The translations under genes and the position numbers were made by a program. A DNA stretch of 52,433 nt from Escherichia virus TH23. Positions 1-52,433 of this stretch are shown piece by piece (the first letter of the stretch is position 1; every line of letters starts with the position of its first letter). Location: sequence record MT446397.1. One strand, given 5' to 3'. Below the pieces are notes generated by a model. It was not told the origin of the DNA, ran no database searches, and saw nothing but the letters and a program-made list of their open reading frames with translations.

Positions 1-433
1 CGTGCTCTGATTGCCTTTGACCTTGACCCACTACCTAACTTGGTGTTGATTGAAAGCCGATAGGCTATAGGAAAAAGTTGGGGTAGGGACCGTATTTAAG
101 TCCGATAGGACGTTGGGCTTCCCCTCCTCGGAGATAAAATTTTAAAAATAATAATGACACAACTTCCCCCCCCCGCCACCTCAAAAATAAAATAATATCG
201 CCACAATTCTAGTCTCATTAATATTGAAACAATTCGAGTCTCATTAATTCCGTAGCAATATTTAAATTAAAAAAAAAATTATATAAAATTTTTATAACAT
301 AGTCGGGCTTCTGTTCGAACAAATTTCGGCTAGATACAGCTGACCGATTGTGAACGAGTCTATGTCCAGATACAGTTGACCGATCATTTACCATTTGGTT
401 TGAACTTTACGCATTCCTAATATTACTTTAAAT
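1..433. repeat. Direct terminal repeat, left copy (equals 52000..52433 except poly-C run of 9 vs 10)
   Basis: Window start cgtgctctgattgcc...tattactttaaat recurs at the window end; AT-rich, contains poly-C, poly-A and short internal direct repeats. True repeat may extend beyond the window edges. Confidence 0.85.
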
Positions 434-12414: not shown

Positions 12415-15400
12415 TTATCTACGTTCCATTGCACCATTACCCATGTTGATTGTTTGGGTAACAGTTTGACCGTTCGGAGTTGACACGGTTGCAGACGCTT
12501 GCTTGTTGTTCACAGTAGCTTTGACTTCAACGTTAACTACAGTGGCCTGTGTCTGACCATAAGACAGTCCGTTTCTGGTGAAGCCAGTTGCACCTTCTGC
12601 GATAGAATCACCCTGAGAAGCCCATTCACGGTACTTCTTGACGCGGTTCTGTGCCTGTAGAGGAACAGCATTGAGCCAGTCGGTTCCGTGTTTGTTGATA
12701 GCATCATCAACAGTTCCAGCACCATCCGTATACGCCGCCATAGCCTTCTCAGCGTCACCATTATAACGCTTGAGCATTGCATCATAGTAGTCACGACCAA
12801 CGCGAGCACGTTCTTCCAGTGAGTTATCACGGGCAGGTTTAACGCCAAATCCTGGGTCACGGGAAGTTGAATCAAGAACCTGCATACGACCTTTGGCACC
12901 AGTCGGAGATGTAACCACCGAACCATCTGCGTTCAAATCGCGGTTCCCTGACTCTTCTCCTGCGATAAAGTCATATACCGTTCTGGTAGTATCAGCTAAA
13001 CCATTTGACGCTGTACGCGCTACTCTGGCCGCATCTCCACCTGCTTCGATAAATGAACTCCCGTATGATATTGCAGCTTGCGGGACTGCGTATCCTGGCA
13101 GCACCCCAGCACGCTCCGTCTGCGCTATTCCTAGCTGTGCAATACCATCGGCATACTGTGAGTTGGCACCACGGCTTACGTTCTCCTGAGCCTCGTTCAC
13201 GCTGTAATCTGTACGGTCATAGGCGCGAGCCATGCCATCCAGACCTGCCATCTCCATAGCGCCAGCGATACGAGCCTGACTCCAGCCCCGCTCCTGACCA
13301 CGTTCACGCATTACCCGCGCTAAGGCCACAGGGTCGCCCTGTGCCGCACGAATGTCGCCAATAGTGATAAGACCACGGGTTCCCTGAACGATGTTGACAG
13401 CGCCGCTAGGGTCGCCATTCAGGAGGGTGTTATAGGCACTATGTGTGGTTCGATTGAGTCGGCCAGCTTGTTGCTGATTAAGCCCCAACATCTCCAAGCC
13501 CTGTGACATGGAAGAATATTCATTAGGGTTATTGACACCAGCGTCTAAAGAGTTTCCGTAGAAATCGTTCAGACCTTCGAGCGCCTCGTTACCAATCTGG
13601 GTAGCACCGATAGCCATACCCGCCACACGTCCCCACGGGGTCATCATGAGGGCATTCATTGCACCATTGGATAGTGAGCCTATGCTACCGCCAGCTACGC
13701 CAGCAGCCAATGCGCCACCAGCACGACCGAAGTCATCTGAGAAGCTGCCACCAGTATTCCAACCACGACCGCCACCGCCACCGGAACCACCCCCACCAAT
13801 GCCATAACTACTAGCATCGAAGGTGTCCCAGAAGCCGCCACCACCGCCACGACCACCATTGTCCCCGAAGTCGGCATCTTGTCCACGCAGCTTATTTTCT
13901 TCCTGAGCAGCGAGGATACCTTTCTTGACAGATACTGCCATCAAGTCATTGCCAGTTGTGCTGTCAGAGCCTACGGCAGAGGCTGTGGCTTCCCCAACTC
14001 CAGCACTGGTACGGTTGCCTATGAATGGGTCATCGGCTGTACCAGCAGCGGCAGAGTAGCCACGCGTTGACTTCTGCTTAACATCCTTCCAGATACCATC
14101 GCCAGTCATTGCAGCACGAGCACCTTTGATTAAATCATCATTGGACAAGTCTGAATTAGCTTCAACAAACTCTCGACCAGCATTAAGACGACCAATAGTA
14201 GAATCAATCTTATCTTTGTTGCGTTCGTACCATCCCTCGTCCTTCTCAATCCATTCCGATACCGTCTTGTCTCCGATTGTCTGAGAGAACAATGCACGAC
14301 TACGGCCAGATACAAGCATGCCAAATTGAAGTTGGTCGAGATAGTCCTTATGCTCACCAGCAGACAGGTTAGAAAACTTCTTAGCCCTTTCAGGGTTCTT
14401 GTGTTCCCAAATCGCGTCATCACCGATAAGACCATCTGGGGAATACATGAACGACGGATAATTGTCATTTGTTATTGCGCCAGCTTGCTCAATGTCGAAT
14501 CCAAATTCTTTGGCGACACGGTTACGAGCAACTTCTTCCGTCCGATGACCTGCTTCGAACATTCGTTGAGTAAATTCACTTGGCCCCTTTCCGCGTTGTA
14601 GGCCAATCTTATCAACCATTGCAGCCCAGGGTCGGTTGTATTCATTGTTACCAAGAAACGAGCCAACAGTGGAACCAGTAATGTCATATTGCTTGCGGAA
14701 GTCTAACCATTCCTGAGTGCCCTGTTCCATGTTGTGATAACGGATTGGGCCTTCTTGCGGAGCTGGCTGTGGAGCAGAGTCCAAATTAGATATAGCAATG
14801 CTCTCACGACGAGAGCGAGCAGAGTTCCAACTTGTTGGAGAATCAAGTTGTGCAATAAACTCTGTTGAAGGACTTAATTCAGTAGGTCCAGTATTTCTTA
14901 AACGTTCAGCAGGGTCAAATGTTCGAGAAACTTCTGCCTCATTATATTGGTGAGCATTCTCAAGAACACCACGAATTGATGTACCAGAGTAACGAGGGTC
15001 GTCACCAATATCTTTCTTAAGGTTATCGTAACCGGAACGAACATCTGCAATGTCTGCATAACGAGAAGCAGAGTCCAGGATTAAATCTCTGTCAGAAGAT
15101 TGAGTGCGATATGCATTCATTCCTCTTTCAGCACCACCAGAATAAACCTTTGCCGCAGATTTAACTACGCCAGAAACATCTTGGTAGAGTGTCTTGCTTG
15201 CATCAGACCAACCTGGAGAACCAGACAAGGATGCAGATAGGGAATATTCAGACTTGATACCTCCACCAAATGAACCTATCGGAAGACCAGATGCGTTAAG
15301 AGGCTGTCGAGGATGCAGAATATCTCCAACAACAGATTCAGAACCAAGTTGAGGTAATGAATCCATGTATGAAAGTTTTGGCCCCGACTTATTTCCTACA

Positions 15401-16092
15401 TTCATTGCAGATACGGCAGCAACTTCTCGGAAGTTTTGCGGCAATTCTGATTCTAAACGTTTGGCTACACGATAAACATCTCGTGCATAGCGGTCTGGGT
15501 TGTCGTATTGTTCACGGTCAACATACATGTGAGCAAGATAGCCAAATGACTTGGCAATATCTCCACGGTTTGTGGAATATTCATCCATAATATTACCGGT
15601 ATAGTGTCCGGCAAGTTCAGGCATTATATCTTGATGACCTGCAAGAGTATCTCGCATGTACGAGTTAAGCATTCCCCAATGACCTTCCGGCTTGTTGGGG
15701 TTGGCTTTAGGCATGTGCATCCAAACATCATCAGCGGATACACCAAGTTGTTCCATGTATGCGTGAACTGCTTCTACATGGTGTCCTGGTCCGTTCATTG
15801 CAGCATGGAATGTTTCAGTCAGCCCAGCGCCAGAAATCATCTGTGCTATATGTGCTGCATCTGAAATCATATCAGAAGTCCCGTATGAAGTTTCATCCTC
15901 ATACATCTGGGAATCTGGTTCGCCCAAAAGCTGTGAATTTGTTTCCATCCAACCTGACGCAGCACTTGATTCAAGTTGCTGGGCCATATCTCGTTTGCGC
16001 ATACCAGGATTGAAGGACAGACCGTACTGAGCACCCATGCCGATTAGTTCGGCCTCGGATAGCTTCATTAAATCTTTTAAGTTCTTAGCCAT
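12415..16092 (-). CDS. Tape-measure-like large tail protein with an internal YqaJ-type nuclease-like segment, a glycine-rich tract and a C-terminal lytic transglycosylase (SLT) domain
   Basis: 1225 aa between chaperone and baseplate genes; QGTQEWLDFR...YSPDGLIGDDAIWEHKNP resembles the YqaJ/lambda-exonuclease motif; GGRGGGGGF...GGGGSGGGGGRG tract; ESGNRDLNADGSVVTSPTGAKGRMQV resembles the SLT catalytic region. Confidence 0.55.
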   Translation of the reverse strand: MAKNLKDLMKLSEAELIGMGAQYGLSFNPGMRKRDMAQQLESSAASGWMETNSQLLGEPDSQMYEDETSYGTSDMISDAAHIAQMISGAGLTETFHAAMNGPGHHVEAVHAYMEQLGVSADDVWMHMPKANPNKPEGHWGMLNSYMRDTLAGHQDIMPELAGHYTGNIMDEYSTNRGDIAKSFGYLAHMYVDREQYDNPDRYARDVYRVAKRLESELPQNFREVAAVSAMNVGNKSGPKLSYMDSLPQLGSESVVGDILHPRQPLNASGLPIGSFGGGIKSEYSLSASLSGSPGWSDASKTLYQDVSGVVKSAAKVYSGGAERGMNAYRTQSSDRDLILDSASRYADIADVRSGYDNLKKDIGDDPRYSGTSIRGVLENAHQYNEAEVSRTFDPAERLRNTGPTELSPSTEFIAQLDSPTSWNSARSRRESIAISNLDSAPQPAPQEGPIRYHNMEQGTQEWLDFRKQYDITGSTVGSFLGNNEYNRPWAAMVDKIGLQRGKGPSEFTQRMFEAGHRTEEVARNRVAKEFGFDIEQAGAITNDNYPSFMYSPDGLIGDDAIWEHKNPERAKKFSNLSAGEHKDYLDQLQFGMLVSGRSRALFSQTIGDKTVSEWIEKDEGWYERNKDKIDSTIGRLNAGREFVEANSDLSNDDLIKGARAAMTGDGIWKDVKQKSTRGYSAAAGTADDPFIGNRTSAGVGEATASAVGSDSTTGNDLMAVSVKKGILAAQEENKLRGQDADFGDNGGRGGGGGFWDTFDASSYGIGGGGSGGGGGRGWNTGGSFSDDFGRAGGALAAGVAGGSIGSLSNGAMNALMMTPWGRVAGMAIGATQIGNEALEGLNDFYGNSLDAGVNNPNEYSSMSQGLEMLGLNQQQAGRLNRTTHSAYNTLLNGDPSGAVNIVQGTRGLITIGDIRAAQGDPVALARVMRERGQERGWSQARIAGAMEMAGLDGMARAYDRTDYSVNEAQENVSRGANSQYADGIAQLGIAQTERAGVLPGYAVPQAAISYGSSFIEAGGDAARVARTASNGLADTTRTVYDFIAGEESGNRDLNADGSVVTSPTGAKGRMQVLDSTSRDPGFGVKPARDNSLEERARVGRDYYDAMLKRYNGDAEKAMAAYTDGAGTVDDAINKHGTDWLNAVPLQAQNRVKKYREWASQGDSIAEGATGFTRNGLSYGQTQATVVNVEVKATVNNKQASATVSTPNGQTVTQTINMGNGAMERR

Positions 16093-41540: not shown

Positions 41541-41609
41541 AAGAATAATAAGAATAAATTAAATAAATGAAGAAAGTGCTTGACACCCATTTGGCTATAA
41601 GTGTATAAT
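41541..41609 (+). promoter_or_regulatory. Consensus sigma70-type promoter with A-tract UP-like element, oriented opposite to all genes
   Basis: TTGACA at 41580..41585, 18-nt spacer, TATAAT at 41604..41609; upstream A-tracts aaagaataataagaataaattaaataaatg. Confidence 0.5.
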
Positions 41610-45572: not shown

Positions 45573-45731
45573 TTGAATTAATCAGGAACACTCAATGAAT
45601 GCTCCTTGTTAATTTAACGCGCCAGTTTATATTCCTGCTTGTAATAGCAGCAGGTTGGCAAAGCCTATAACAATCGTAATTATAACAACGCTAATAGTAA
45701 GTGTCAGTATTAGGTATTTAATATTCAATCC

Positions 45732-48814: not shown

Positions 48815-48859
48815 ATAAATGAACATGCTTAATTGCAACTAACTCATCTGCCAAATAGA

Positions 48860-49715
48860 CGAATTTTGTCACAATTAAACATGCGTCATTAATTACAGGT
48901 TTACTCCCACCTTGAATGTATTTGGCACATTAAGATTGGAGCAAGCAGGTACGGAAAACCGACCATGTACAGCATAATAAAACTAATTAAATAAAGGGTT
49001 TTATCCCAATATTGTCACAATATTTACATGCGATGATAAAGCCTTCGCTTGGCTGGAAGCCAGTATTCATGCGGGTTGCAAGAATATTGGGTCAATACTG
49101 ATACAGCTATTACATGTGAAATTGGCACAAATACTGTTACAAAATTAACATGCCGGATTGGTAGACAATTGTATCTTCGAGGTGATTAGTCCTCTAACAA
49201 TTCTGCCACATTCTAACATGCCAATTTGTAGCAATATTTACATGCCATACTGTGACGCAATTGTCACAATATTTGTTGCTCAAAATCGGGGCGGGCTACG
49301 GGATTAGTTTCGCGGCTTTGCTCCGACTCTTCTCTTCTTTCGAATTAAGATAGAAAGAAAGAAGCATGTCCAAAAGTTCCAGTCTTGCCAAAGTTATCTC
49401 CCGGCTTGTGGGTGGGCCTTTATAATAGGAGATGGAGCAATATTGTCGCAATTGAACATGCTTTAGTTGAAGAACAGTTTCGAATGATAATCCTACTTCA
49501 CACATGGTTGCTGGAACTTTGTCTGGCCAAAGACAGGGAGTTCAATGATTGCCACATCATTACAACGCTGTGTGTTTAGTTGACATGCTGAAATGTTTCT
49601 AGAATGATTTCAACATGACATGCGGAATACTTCTCCGTATTCTGTTACTTCACATCCAACTAATGTCGAATATTGAAACAATATTACATGCAGCAATATT
49701 GCTTGAATATTGGGA
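48860..49715. repeat. Cluster of at least nine degenerate copies of an AT-rich 20-mer (consensus TTGTCACAATATTTACATGC), mostly one orientation, one palindromic unit TGTGACgcaattGTCACA
   Basis: Copies near 48866, 49011, 49122, 49201, 49225, 49249-49280, 49441, 49550 and 49676; related copies near 199-270 and 435-470. Confidence 0.6.
49649..49665 (-). promoter_or_regulatory. Conserved intergenic motif copy (candidate phage promoter)
   Basis: Minus strand CATTAGTTGGATGTGAA, about 75 nt downstream of the RNA polymerase terminator. Confidence 0.35.
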
Positions 49716-49737
49716 ATTAAAGGATTTAATTAATAAA

Positions 49738-49774
49738 GAATAAAGAAAGGGCCATCACCTTTCGATGACAGCCC
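49738..49774 (-). terminator. Intrinsic terminator immediately downstream of the RNA polymerase gene
   Basis: Minus strand: stop codon, gaaaca, GGGCUGUCAUC-GAAA-GGUGAUGGCCC (about 11-bp stem, GNRA loop), then UUUCUUUAUUC. Confidence 0.55.
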
Positions 49775-49782
49775 TGTTTCTC

Positions 49783-51897
49783 TTATTGACAGAAGTAGTA
49801 AGCGTGTTCGCTCATCAGAAGCTCTTCGGTTACGATGTTCTCATGATACATCTGAATGCCACCAAGTTGCTTAGACAGATTCTCGAATTGATTGTTGGTT
49901 ACGAAGATTTCAACATATGCTGCACGAATAACTTCCATCATTTTAGGAGCATCAGCTAAGCAGCAACGGAAACAATCATGGATTGAAGTAAAGCCACGAA
50001 GACCAGCTTCTTTAGCTTTGACTGCAACAGTACGAGCAACCAATGCGTCAATACCTTGAATGTAGTTAACAACGAAGGTACGTTTGAATTCCTCTTTAGT
50101 TGGATTGGACTCACGAATGGTCCAAGGCTTATTCTCCTGAATCTGACCAAAGATGACACGAGTTTGAGAGTCAACACGAATGCTGAATGCATCACAAACA
50201 TCACGAGATGGGAAGCAAGGTTTCATTACAACTTGACCATCAGTGTGCTTATATGTGATGTACTCTTTGTTGAGTTCAACACAACGAGCAAATGCAGCAT
50301 CAGCAGCTTTCTCGATGAACATGTTAATCTTAGCACCCAATGCGTTATGGATTGCTTCAACACAAAGTTCAGCAAATGCTTCGGCTTTCTCCATAGGAAT
50401 CTGGAGAGCTTCTGTCATGTATGCGGTGAAATCAGAAGAACCAGTCAATGCAGCTTTACCACCACCATATTGGATAGCCATGTATGGAGTTTTGATAAAC
50501 TTACGACCAGCTTTCGGATTCAAGAATTCATCCATAATTTCAGCGGATGGTTTCATTGAAGAACGGTCAAGCAACTTCAACAGTTCACGAAGAGATAACT
50601 GGTATGGGTCAGATGCTTTAGTCTCAGAATCAACCAGACCTGTAGCACGAGCCATTTCCATGTTACCAGCAATGAATGCCAAGTATTGGGTACCAGAACA
50701 TTTAGCATCTAAGCCAAAGCCTACACGAGAATCACACTCACCTGTAGTCTCAAACTTGAACCAATCCAGAGCCAGACGAACATAAGTGAATGGCTTAGAA
50801 GGACGCTCACCTTTAGGCATGTTCAGCATACGAGCCAAAGAACCAGCAGGATTCTGTGCAACATAAGTTAAACGTTTTGCAGAAGTCCAGTCTCCACCAG
50901 CAATATCTTCCAGCTCAAGCATGAACATGTTGTATGCCAGAGTTGTTGAGCCATCATCATTAAACTTGCTCACAGTGTTCTCAACATTGTGGGAATACAG
51001 GCAACGAGCAAAGTCGGATGATTGTGGGTTAGGACCAGCACATGCTACATGATACAAACGACCACGGTTATCAGCAAAGTAGTCAGAGAACAGAGTGTCC
51101 TGCCCAACCATTGCTACAGCATTGTTCCAAACATGGAGTTCAGTCTGGATTGCTTCTGGCATCTGTAAGCCACCAAAGGTACGTTGTTCTAACATGGAAG
51201 AGATAACCTTAACCATTGTTGCATCAACGTGATATTCAGTATCTTGCAGGAATTCGATTGCAGCTTTCAGAGTCTTGGATGGCTTAACTTTGCCACCTTT
51301 AACGAAAGGCTTGCGACGAGATTCAGTTGTTACACGCTCAGTGAATGGAACTGAGGTATCTTTGGTTGTAACCAGCTCAACCCATGCATCAGTCATCTGG
51401 AACGATTTGTCCTCGTTCATGGTGATGAAACCGAAGTGCTTAGCTAAACCAATGAGGTTGATAGCTGGGTCAACATAGTGCATTGCTTTCAGGTCGTTGT
51501 TATAACGGTTGGCATCAGCAATAGAAGCAGAAGCCAGCTCGACCATTGCAATGGCTGGGACAACATCATCACGAGTGAATGACGTCATCATCTTGAAGAT
51601 TGCAAGAGCAGCAATAGCACAGGTCTGAGGCTGCATGTAATTCTGTTTCTCTTTGGCACGGTATACCAGAGCCGTGATAGCAGGGACAACGGATTTGATA
51701 GTTTGAGTTGAGATAGTTGTCATTTTGCGAGTCTCCAAGTTAGTTTCGGTTTTAGTTTCGGATTGTGTAGCAGCAGTGATTTCGTCAACCATTTGGTTGC
51801 AACGGTCCATCGTATCAAGCACGTCTTTCCAACCGTGGCCTTCTTCTTTTAAGCGAGCGCCATCAGCAGCCAGTGCGCGATATTCTTCGTTAGTCAT
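49783..51897 (-). CDS. Single-subunit T7-like DNA-dependent RNA polymerase (small, 704 aa)
   Basis: Motif A FGLDAKCSGTQYLAF (T7 FDGSCSGIQHF), motif B RKFIKTPYMAIQYGGG (T7 RSVTKRSVMTLAYGS), motif C FTSIHDCF...ADAPKM (T7 ALIHDSF...ADAANL); GGAG Shine-Dalgarno. Confidence 0.85.
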   Translation of the reverse strand: MTNEEYRALAADGARLKEEGHGWKDVLDTMDRCNQMVDEITAATQSETKTETNLETRKMTTISTQTIKSVVPAITALVYRAKEKQNYMQPQTCAIAALAIFKMMTSFTRDDVVPAIAMVELASASIADANRYNNDLKAMHYVDPAINLIGLAKHFGFITMNEDKSFQMTDAWVELVTTKDTSVPFTERVTTESRRKPFVKGGKVKPSKTLKAAIEFLQDTEYHVDATMVKVISSMLEQRTFGGLQMPEAIQTELHVWNNAVAMVGQDTLFSDYFADNRGRLYHVACAGPNPQSSDFARCLYSHNVENTVSKFNDDGSTTLAYNMFMLELEDIAGGDWTSAKRLTYVAQNPAGSLARMLNMPKGERPSKPFTYVRLALDWFKFETTGECDSRVGFGLDAKCSGTQYLAFIAGNMEMARATGLVDSETKASDPYQLSLRELLKLLDRSSMKPSAEIMDEFLNPKAGRKFIKTPYMAIQYGGGKAALTGSSDFTAYMTEALQIPMEKAEAFAELCVEAIHNALGAKINMFIEKAADAAFARCVELNKEYITYKHTDGQVVMKPCFPSRDVCDAFSIRVDSQTRVIFGQIQENKPWTIRESNPTKEEFKRTFVVNYIQGIDALVARTVAVKAKEAGLRGFTSIHDCFRCCLADAPKMMEVIRAAYVEIFVTNNQFENLSKQLGGIQMYHENIVTEELLMSEHAYYFCQ

Positions 51898-51959
51898 GAT
51901 AAGTCTCCAATTGATTATGATTTAACTGAAACGGATTAGACTTGCGTAGCCTATTCATA

Positions 51960-51977
51960 ATCACAACCAACTAATGG
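51960..51977 (-). promoter_or_regulatory. Conserved intergenic motif copy (candidate promoter), upstream of the RNA polymerase gene
   Basis: Minus strand CCATTAGTTGGTTGTGAT, about 70 nt upstream of the polymerase ATG. Confidence 0.3.
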
Positions 51978-51999
51978 TAAGGCTAGCTCGTTACAACAG

Positions 52000-52433
52000 C
52001 GTGCTCTGATTGCCTTTGACCTTGACCCACTACCTAACTTGGTGTTGATTGAAAGCCGATAGGCTATAGGAAAAAGTTGGGGTAGGGACCGTATTTAAGT
52101 CCGATAGGACGTTGGGCTTCCCCTCCTCGGAGATAAAATTTTAAAAATAATAATGACACAACTTCCCCCCCCCCGCCACCTCAAAAATAAAATAATATCG
52201 CCACAATTCTAGTCTCATTAATATTGAAACAATTCGAGTCTCATTAATTCCGTAGCAATATTTAAATTAAAAAAAAAATTATATAAAATTTTTATAACAT
52301 AGTCGGGCTTCTGTTCGAACAAATTTCGGCTAGATACAGCTGACCGATTGTGAACGAGTCTATGTCCAGATACAGTTGACCGATCATTTACCATTTGGTT
52401 TGAACTTTACGCATTCCTAATATTACTTTAAAT
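52000..52433. repeat. Direct terminal repeat, right copy
   Basis: Matches 1..433 with one extra C in the poly-C run. Confidence 0.85.

Follow-up and report, generated by a model that had tools for sequence, protein, structure and literature searches.

A compact T7-like RNA polymerase gene with a fused upstream small gene, a putative promoter motif, and a terminator in Escherichia virus TH23

The presence of a T7-type RNA polymerase (RNAP) in a contractile-tailed phage is already known. A small T7-like RNAP gene defines the Chaseviridae, and Jamalludeen et al. reportedly described phiEcoM-GJ1 in 2008 as having a "podovirus-like RNA polymerase in a myovirus". Since that year, the combination has been a textbook fact of the family, which leaves the main point unchanged. 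We found no biochemical or transcriptomic work on chasevirus RNAPs in the literature searched, two recent phage RNAP surveys included. The ICTV profile lists chasevirus promoters as unidentified and gives terminal repeats of ~3 kb (PMC12842549); for PP101, eight promoters were predicted (PMC6989608). For ST32, the RNAP annotation gives TGGAGACttacaaATG and a product of 646 aa (PMC6266442). Outside the family, the 673-aa RNAPII of N4 has been called "one of the smallest" and requires gp1 and gp2 (PMC4496689).

Here, we analyzed the RNAP gene of Escherichia virus TH23 in a window of 52,433 nucleotides (nt), which is the whole stretch of sequence record MT446397.1 that was studied. An initial annotation had claimed a 704-aa single-subunit RNAP in a myovirus-like genome with a layout reminiscent of Chaseviridae-type phages. 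Two profile searches confirmed the open reading frame (ORF) as an RNAP: Pfam RNA_pol PF00940 matched aa 387-679 with 70.1 bits (gathering score cutoff, 22), and PHROG 414 "RNA polymerase" matched aa 45-703 (E = 1.8e-94). The contractile-tail genome was also recovered, with minus-strand genes for tail sheath, major head protein, portal, and large terminase, along with DNA polymerase, primase/helicase, and the small subunit of RNR. All genes run in one direction, and the RNAP gene is the leftmost. All features of the RNAP unit are on the minus strand (Table 1), which the initial annotation had not given.

Table 1. Features of the RNAP unit and of the neighboring genome end, in window coordinates
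Feature	Position	Strand	Remarks
RNAP ORF	49783..51897	-	704 aa; ATG start; zero internal stops (ORF read-out)
Stop codon TAA	49783..49785	-	read from sequence
Core single-subunit RNAP	49786..51723	-	646 aa (ORF aa 59-704)
Core domains			N-terminal ~aa 59-210; short thumb ~220-267; palm/fingers 268-704
Catalytic Asp codons	D397, 50709..50707; D641, 49977..49975	-	
N-terminal extension, clade-specific	51724..51897	-	codons 1-58
Retained ancestral RBS before M59	51733..51736	-	GGAG; family-wide start
M59 ATG	51723..51721	-	start codon in rest of family
5' leader	51898..51960	-	RBS GGAG at 51908..51905
Motif copy upstream of RNAP, off-consensus	51961..51976	-	reads CATTAGTTGGTTGTGA; 1 mismatch; 64 nt before ATG
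Intrinsic terminator	49738..49775	-	12-bp stem, GAAA loop, T-rich tail: AGGGCTGTCATC-GAAA-GGTGATGGCCCT then TTCTTTATTC
Perfect consensus motif copy, just past terminator	49650..49665	-	corresponds to GJ1 "putative phage promoter 1" (GenBank annotation)
Copy of window 1-433	52000..52433	.	1-nt indel in poly-C run
Region equivalent to Mangalitsa/JL1 long direct terminal repeat	49328..52103	.	by homology; includes whole RNAP unit

Comparison with related genomes placed the ORF in Carltongylesvirus (Chaseviridae; phiEcoM-GJ1 group) as the gene for a T7-like single-subunit DNA-dependent RNAP. The Chaseviridae-type layout was thus correctly recognized: the RNAP region is 91-95% identical at the nucleotide level to that of Mangalitsa, SKA49, phiEcoM-GJ1, the PYps phages, and SA91KD, which include classified Carltongylesvirus members. 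In all of these, the corresponding ORF is annotated as RNA polymerase. TH28 and TH33 show no difference over the RNAP region (100% nucleotide identity). The PYps phages, TH24, and TH25 are 92-95% identical to the first 25 kb of the window; identity to TH33 is 100%. We consider it very probable that the locus as a whole combines this identity with a position in the direct terminal repeat (DTR), a promoter motif with feedback and a terminator, a 646-aa core, and a fused small gene.

The catalytic center of the enzyme is intact. In a 66-sequence family alignment, D276/R278/R280/Y282, D397, R465/K469/Y477, H640/D641, and F702 were invariant. The first four residues (DxxGR block) align to T7 D421/R423/R425/Y427. 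Motifs A, B, and C, which the initial annotation had described as kept, are represented by D397, R465/K469/Y477, and H640/D641 and align to T7 D537, R627/K631/Y639, and H811/D812. Overall identity to T7 RNAP is 13-17%, and T7 H784 is replaced by Q614. The AF2 model of the RNAP had a pLDDT of 89, and a fold test identified it as a family-A polymerase that is closest to solved single-subunit RNAPs. The short length of the ORF compared with the 883 aa of T7 is the only point suggesting a pseudogene, in which a longer T7-type polymerase would have been truncated or frameshifted. We give this reading practically no credence: about 100 homologues share the same 630-650-aa architecture, the C-terminus YYFCQ (with F702) and every catalytic residue are conserved, the model is confident over the whole length, and substitutions cluster at third codon positions.

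The native size of a chasevirus RNAP is ~630-650 aa, not 704 aa. Among 108 homologues, 100 were 604-667 aa long, mostly 630-650. Taking 704 aa as the size of the enzyme was therefore mistaken, since the first 58 codons are a lineage-specific in-frame fusion (see below). The shortfall relative to T7 lies mainly in the N-terminal domain, as had been proposed; this domain comprises ~160 aa versus ~325 in T7, i.e., about half. A profile alignment located additional gaps in the thumb (~40 aa shorter) and in the fingers (~31 aa shorter). The specificity-loop region was kept at full length in both the profile alignment and the AF2 model. The T7-type N-terminal domain PF14700, which contains the AT-rich recognition loop and the intercalating hairpin, did not match the RNAP, permissive thresholds included. 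When modelled alone, the N-terminal domain matched winged-helix domains rather than its T7 counterpart, and it is predicted to be winged-helix-like. A literature search for winged-helix domains within single-subunit RNAPs gave nothing. As for packaging into the virion, the RNAP is not one of the twelve proteins that the legend to Figure 7 names in the 4HA13 virion proteome paper.

The setting of the gene also differs from that in T7, a podovirus in which the polymerase gene follows early genes driven by host promoters; TH23 is a contractile-tailed phage, probably with a long terminal repeat. N4 RNAPII is a heterodimer of gp15 and gp16, whereas the TH23 RNAP is encoded by a single uninterrupted ORF. 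With its 646-aa single-chain core, which is smaller than N4 RNAPII, it is a candidate compact transcription tool. Moreover, N4 RNAPII binds single-stranded DNA only, whereas the TH23 RNAP is linked to a defined motif of double-stranded DNA, the putative promoter described below.

The 58-codon extension arose when a small upstream gene was fused in frame to the RNAP gene; at least one relative has it as a separate gene. In L018, 72 nt lie between a 62-aa ORF with 47% identity to the extension and the 641-aa RNAP gene that follows. Compared with GJ1 and SA91KD, the extension is a 174-nt insertion with duplicated TTGGAGACT on its flanks. A helical hairpin (aa 3-44) and a disordered linker make up the extension (pLDDT, 62-70, dropping below 50 for aa 43-61). 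The linker corresponds to the translated former 5' UTR and RBS, with N-L-E-T-R-K encoded by AAC TTG GAG ACT CGC AAA. The small upstream gene has lost its stop codon, so that its reading frame continues through the former 5' UTR and on into the polymerase. A PHROG search with the extension retrieved only a marginal match (phrog_14095, E = 0.0055). A 55-aa ORF that precedes the RNAP gene in 4HA13 was considered as a relative and rejected, its acidic sequence being unlike the extension as judged by eye.

The fused 704-aa form is shared by Mangalitsa gp01 (YP_009850471, 704 aa), TH28/TH33, SKA49, Bp10, and JL1. In these phages, the core is 94% and the 58-aa extension 91-100% identical to TH23, and the upstream motif CATTAGTTGGTTGTGA and the position at the left genome end are the same. 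Mangalitsa differs by a 201-nt ORF (gp02) that follows the RNAP gene in place of the terminator. In contrast, phiEcoM-GJ1 gp01 (648 aa) and ST32 ORF1 (646 aa), whose cores are 93-95% identical to that of TH23, have no such fusion and begin at the codon corresponding to M59. They resemble TH23 in gene order, in the putative phage promoter after the gene, and in the terminator hairpin after the stop codon. Their upstream motif copy differs (TATTAGTTGGAAGTGA), as does the sequence of the terminator hairpin.

Because the old RBS and the M59 start remain, both a 704-aa and a 646-aa form are possible, and both may be made. We also considered that the functional polymerase starts at M59, the extension being the in-frame remnant of a neighboring gene, with the fusion scarce or the extension functionless for the polymerase. 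The family RBS and ATG are indeed preserved (TTGGAGACTCGCAAAATG), all other family members use this start, the extension is attached via a linker that is predicted to be disordered and derives from a 5' UTR, and its L018 homologue is a separate gene. However, the first ATG has a good RBS of its own, and there is no stop codon before the RNAP sequence, so any ribosome that initiates at this ATG necessarily produces the fusion. In addition, the variable sites in the extension are distributed over the three codon positions as 3/1/14, indicating purifying selection in this frame, and the extension is fused to the RNAP in each of the 12 phage records (10 genomes) containing it. We therefore regard an M59-only polymerase as possible, though rather unlikely, and prefer the reading in which both forms may be made.

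The reduced domains raised the possibility that this minimal RNAP, like N4 RNAPII and mitochondrial RNAPs, needs one or more phage cofactors to recognize or melt promoters, the candidates being the fused or adjacent small protein and other early small ORFs. Truncation of the thumb and the N-terminal domain is a feature shared with N4 RNAPII, which depends on gp1 and gp2 (PMC4496689), the match to the PF14700 N-domain is absent, the isolated N-terminal domain is modelled as winged-helix-like and not T7-like, and the fusion with an adjacent small gene suggests a joint function. On the other hand, the specificity-loop region is full length, the 16-nt motif is well defined, as with autonomous T7-type enzymes, and the small gene is missing from most family members. 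A cofactor requirement appears fairly improbable. If the fusion of the captured neighbor gene does signal cooperation, the small helical protein could act on the polymerase as its partner or regulator. Given also the winged-helix-like N-terminal domain of the models, promoter recognition and opening would then be novel for single-chain T7-type enzymes; this idea is tentative, and we rate it as rather unlikely.

The motif copy upstream of the RNAP gene, already noticed in the initial annotation, is one of eight copies of the 16-nt sequence CATTAGTTGGATGTGA. At ≤2 mismatches, 8 copies were detected in the whole window versus 0.10 expected by chance. All eight are on the minus strand, i.e., sense-oriented, and all eight are located between ORFs of at least 90 aa. 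A weaker ninth copy precedes the terminase gene. The ATTAGTTGG...GTGA core of the RNAP-upstream copy is invariant in four Carltongylesvirus genomes, while its surroundings have diverged. In the leader, the segment TAATCCGTTTCAGTTAAATCATA is invariant in the alignment of Carltongylesvirus relatives. The RNAP-upstream motif has syntenic counterparts in 4HA13, Myduc, and PM1; the one in Y2 is degenerate. Altogether, the motif occurs at syntenic sites in five genera, including Sabourvirus, Loessnervirus, Myducvirus, and Suwonvirus, with small genus-specific changes.

This motif matches phage promoters already predicted in the literature and is a putative promoter. It provides a candidate for a family whose ICTV profile leaves promoters unassigned. 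The RNAP would recognize a compact promoter of ~16 nt, transcription of the early-middle and replication blocks would start from the eight sense copies, and the weaker copy before the terminase gene could drive the late block. The off-consensus copy before the RNAP's own gene would give modest positive feedback. Alternatively, CATTAGTTGGATGTGA could be a cis element of another kind, for example one that binds a regulator or host factor or one that directs RNA processing, and the gene would then not form its own promoter-terminator unit. Consistent with this are the entry in the ICTV profile, the fact that the RNAP-upstream copy would require RNAP beforehand, and the coincidence of the PYps23T record boundaries and of a reported repeat with motif copies. 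Against it, the copies are strictly sense-oriented, between ORFs, right after terminators, and ahead of gene blocks; they are conserved over the five genera with genus-specific changes, and they do not show sigma-70 features. Promoters of the T7, SP6, and K11 type typically have a similar length and an AT-rich 5' half, as this motif does. We therefore judge another cis element to be quite improbable and retain the putative promoter.

The strong intrinsic terminator that had been claimed immediately downstream is indeed present. It begins 7 nt past the RNAP stop codon and has a folding energy of -23.4 kcal/mol (z = -4.95). Such a hairpin would insulate the RNAP gene, with the next consensus promoter ~80 nt beyond. 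In GJ1, Y2, and Myduc, the RNAP stop codon is likewise followed by a terminator with a hairpin and U-tract, in each case of differing sequence, and a terminator is annotated after the RNAP gene of SA91KD. In Mangalitsa and 4HA13, a small ORF and no terminator follows. The proposed RNAP-only promoter-terminator unit agrees with TH23, where both the promoter-like motif and the terminator were found, but it is not universal in the family.

The initial annotation had further placed the RNAP as the first gene after the terminal repeat, based on the 433-bp repeat at the ends of the window. This placement had to be revised. The 433-bp repeat is an overlap from circular assembly, not a physical terminal repeat, and it extends across the point at which the genome ends physically in relatives, as mapped there. 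Their left end corresponds to ~52098-52103, with the Mangalitsa PhageTerm end and the JL1 record end mapping to 52096-52103, and the Y2 record shows this sequence at its left end as well. In Mangalitsa and JL1, the repeat is bounded at positions equivalent to ~49328 and ~52100. In relatives, the DTR is 2.3-3.2 kb long and contains the RNAP gene, and in 4HA13 and Myduc, the RNAP gene is inside the annotated DTR. By homology, the TH23 gene probably also lies inside a DTR, and virion DNA would then hold two copies of it.

Between the mapped left end and the RNAP ATG, no sigma-70-like promoter scoring at least 10/12 or being positionally conserved was found in the window and nine relatives. In this stretch, no recognizable host promoter accounts for the first round of RNAP synthesis. 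The only good sigma-70 candidate was detected in GJ1 (TTGACG-18-TATTAT), ~50 nt outside the repeat; its counterpart in the TH23 window scores just 8/12. As a separate observation on record ends, the location of the PYps23T boundaries on motif copies hints at another role of the motif or at a recombination hotspot.

The polymerase ORF matched the Pfam profile RNA_pol (PF00940) with 70.1 bits (cutoff 22) and PHROG 414, "RNA polymerase", with E = 1.8e-94, in line with its initial annotation as a single-subunit RNA polymerase (RNAP). By BLAST, the RNAP region was 100% identical in TH28 and TH33 and 91-95% identical in SKA49, Bp10, Mangalitsa, phiEcoM-GJ1 (GJ1), the PYps phages, and SA91KD, and the first 25 kb of the window had the same identity pattern. 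Relatives with annotated records belong to Chaseviridae, Cleopatravirinae, and for the most part to the genus Carltongylesvirus, which bears out the family proposed from the layout; those of their records that were inspected label the homologous ORF as RNA polymerase. A tail sheath gene and other myovirus structural genes were found in the window, as the description of the remaining genes as myovirus-like had implied. Because a single-subunit RNAP is listed in the ICTV profile (PMC12842549) as a hallmark of the family and was already described in 2008, the core of the finding, a T7-like RNAP in a Chaseviridae phage, is already known. The original observation was confirmed; its interpretation was right on identity and family and wrong on the terminal repeat and on the meaning of 704 aa.

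Features of the RNAP unit and copies of the 16-nt motif
Feature	Position	Strand	Remark
RNAP ORF	49783..51897	minus	ATG start, 704 aa
Terminator	49775..49738	minus	12-bp stem, GAAA loop, then TTCTTTATTC; 7 nt after the stop codon
Motif copy upstream of RNAP, CATTAGTTGGTTGTGA	51976..51961	minus	64 nt upstream of the RNAP ATG
Eight motif copies	51976, 49665, 48814, 45572, 41650, 41510, 39553, 31862	minus	<=2 mismatches
Ninth motif copy	26849		3 mismatches, directly before the large terminase ORF

In a 66-sequence family alignment, residues D276/R278/R280/Y282, D397, R465/K469/Y477, H640/D641, and F702 were invariant. Sequence and profile alignments to T7 RNAP gave D421-Y427, D537, K631/Y639, and H811/D812 as T7 equivalents, showing that motifs A, B, and C are kept, as claimed. 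A truncated gene was ruled out, since about 100 homologues share the architecture and C-terminus. In the profile alignment, family positions 161-613 line up with T7 residues 317-850. About 160 chasevirus residues stand for the 325-residue N-terminal domain of T7, consistent with the shortened domain initially suggested; compared with T7, gaps of ~40 residues in the thumb and ~31 residues in the fingers (T7 about 590-620) were also seen. No match to PF14700 was detected in the RNAP at E <= 10. Within the N-terminal region, conservation is highest in a basic loop, RRKPxVKGGKVKPSK, and the domain is predicted by modeling to be winged-helix-like, a small addition of specialist interest. N4 RNAPII (673 aa), with its truncated thumb and N-terminal domain and its cofactor dependence, was called one of the smallest family members (PMC4496689); the TH23 core enzyme (aa 59-704, 646 aa) is smaller and a single chain.

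The length of 704 aa was found in only one of 108 homologue clusters, whereas 100 of the 108 had 604-667 aa, mostly 630-650. Relative to GJ1 and SA91KD, the window and Mangalitsa carry a 174-nt in-frame insertion flanked by a duplicated ribosome-binding sequence (RBS), TTGGAGACT. The start codons of the GJ1 (648 aa) and ST32 (646 aa) polymerases are equivalent to M59 with its RBS. The resulting 58-residue extension was present in 12 phage records (10 genomes), each time fused to RNAP. Its variable sites by codon position (3/1/14 in six genomes) resemble those of the adjacent core (1/0/16); therefore, the extension is translated and under constraint. Among 1.84 billion representative proteins, one real relative was found, a 62-aa protein 47% identical over 51 residues. 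Its gene is free-standing on a metagenomic contig, 72 nt upstream of a 641-aa RNAP gene, with a motif-like sequence of its own in front; behind it come a hairpin, another motif-like sequence, and the RBS of the polymerase gene. Because of this free-standing homologue, because the extension ends in N-L-E-T-R-K, which is the RBS region in translation, and because aa 43-61 are disordered in the structure model, we conclude that the extension is an upstream gene that was captured and joined to the core by reading through the former 5' UTR. Thus, 704 aa should not be taken as the size of the polymerase: the first 58 codons are a clade-specific fusion. Both 704-aa and 646-aa products are possible, and the fusion origin is likewise a small addition of specialist interest.

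Lineages differ in the small gene that they carry between the left-end motif and RNAP: an acidic 55-aa ORF in 4HA13 (194-361) and, in the metagenomic contig (461-649), the 62-aa homologue of the part fused in the TH23 clade.

The motif, a 16-nt putative phage-RNAP promoter sequence, occurred eight times at <=2 mismatches, against 0.10 copies expected by chance. All eight copies are sense-oriented and lie between ORFs of >=90 aa, and one is indeed found upstream of RNAP. Copy 49665 corresponds to "putative phage promoter 1" of the GJ1 annotation. Syntenic copies lie just after the RNAP gene in 4HA13, Y2, Myduc, and PM1 and before it in 4HA13, Myduc, and PM1 but not, at <=3 mismatches, in Y2, which has a degenerate copy there. 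Small changes are genus specific (e.g., CATTAGTTGAGTGTGA in Myduc), and the RNAP-upstream copy differs from CATTAGTTGGATGTGA at 1-4 positions in each of the nine genomes compared. For PP101, a set of eight such promoters has been predicted (PMC6989608); according to the ICTV profile (PMC12842549), family promoters have not been identified. We infer, with good support, that the motif acts as a promoter.

The strong terminator described immediately downstream of RNAP was recovered (-23.4 kcal/mol, z = -4.95). GJ1, Y2, and Myduc have a hairpin and U tract after the RNAP stop codon, each with a sequence of its own, and the SA91KD record annotates a terminator there. Mangalitsa and 4HA13 have a small ORF instead. 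A separate promoter-terminator unit for RNAP is thus common among chaseviruses, with exceptions. BLAST alignments with relatives break at the stop codon (49783) and close to M59 (51739), and the core RNAP gene behaves as a mosaic module.

The window ends are duplicated (1-433 = 52000-52433, one indel in a poly-C run). The 433-bp duplication is probably not the physical repeat, because relatives' physical ends map inside it: the Mangalitsa left end (PhageTerm) and the JL1 record end both map to 52096-52103, and the Y2 record has the same left-end sequence. The inner boundary maps to ~49328 for both the 3234-bp Mangalitsa repeat and the 2995-bp duplicated ends of JL1. The repeats annotated for 4HA13 (3120 bp) and for Myduc (3202 bp) both enclose the RNAP gene. 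In PYps23T, the repeat is ~2.3 kb by restriction digestion and PCR, and two places in the record match the RNAP gene. Repeats of ~2.6 kb in Y2 and PM1 are attributed to earlier reports cited in PMC8762354, and the ICTV profile gives ~3 kb for the family (PMC12842549). By homology, the whole RNAP unit (49328-52100) would lie inside the terminal repeat and would therefore be present twice per virion DNA. RNAP had been described as the first gene after the repeat; this is not supported, since the relatives' repeats of 2.3-3.2 kb contain it.

The duplicated window ends differ by one base in a run of ~10 C (166-175 and 52166-52176), typical of homopolymer length error or heterogeneity. The PYps23T record begins within the motif copy upstream of RNAP, and its reported 2,339-bp repeat ends in the next copy (2329-2344). 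These boundaries, unlike those of Mangalitsa and JL1, fall on two motif copies, for which recombination or an effect of assembly or PCR may be responsible. Past the RNAP terminator, a 1.2-kb noncoding stretch holds ~8-10 copies (48850-49720) of a ~27-nt element in which (T/A)ACATGC comes after a 17-bp palindrome (AATATTGTCACAATATT and variants). These copies, which may be an array of operators or iterons or else an origin, span the predicted inner boundary at ~49328, where an inverted repeat, TCTTCTTTCGAATTAAGATAGAAAGAAAGA, is also located.

In none of the genera examined was a conserved or strong sigma-70-type promoter found in the interval from the mapped physical end to the RNAP ATG. The host promoter annotated in GJ1, TTGACG-18-TATTAT, lies ~50 nt beyond the repeat, and its degraded counterpart in the window scores 8/12. 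The Figure 7 legend of the 4HA13 virion proteome paper names twelve proteins, and RNAP is not one of them.

Elsewhere, a strong extended -10 sigma-70 promoter (CTGACA-17-TATAAT, 11/12, TG before the -10; 45679-45707, minus) is found on the gene strand and shares an ORF-free gap with motif copy 45572. An antisense 12/12 match, TTGACA-18-TATAAT (41580-41609, plus), lies between copies 41650 and 41510.

RNAP homologues were also detected on Mb-sized chromosome contigs of Hafnia alvei (GCA_002206365.2, 52% identical) and Pseudomonas brenneri (CP122540.1, 36%), within integrated chasevirus-like elements adjoining integrase genes. The gene order is integrase, holin, hydrolase, RNAP, small ORFs, and ArdA in Hafnia and baseplate genes, lysozyme, RNAP, small ORFs, integrase, and ahpC in Pseudomonas. 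Although the family has been described as strictly lytic, these elements suggest that it has temperate relatives. Finally, within a 1225-aa virion structural protein (PHROG 19855; 12415-16092, minus), aa 432-640 match RecE-like exonuclease families and aa 1030-1200 match families of endolysins or lytic tail fibres.
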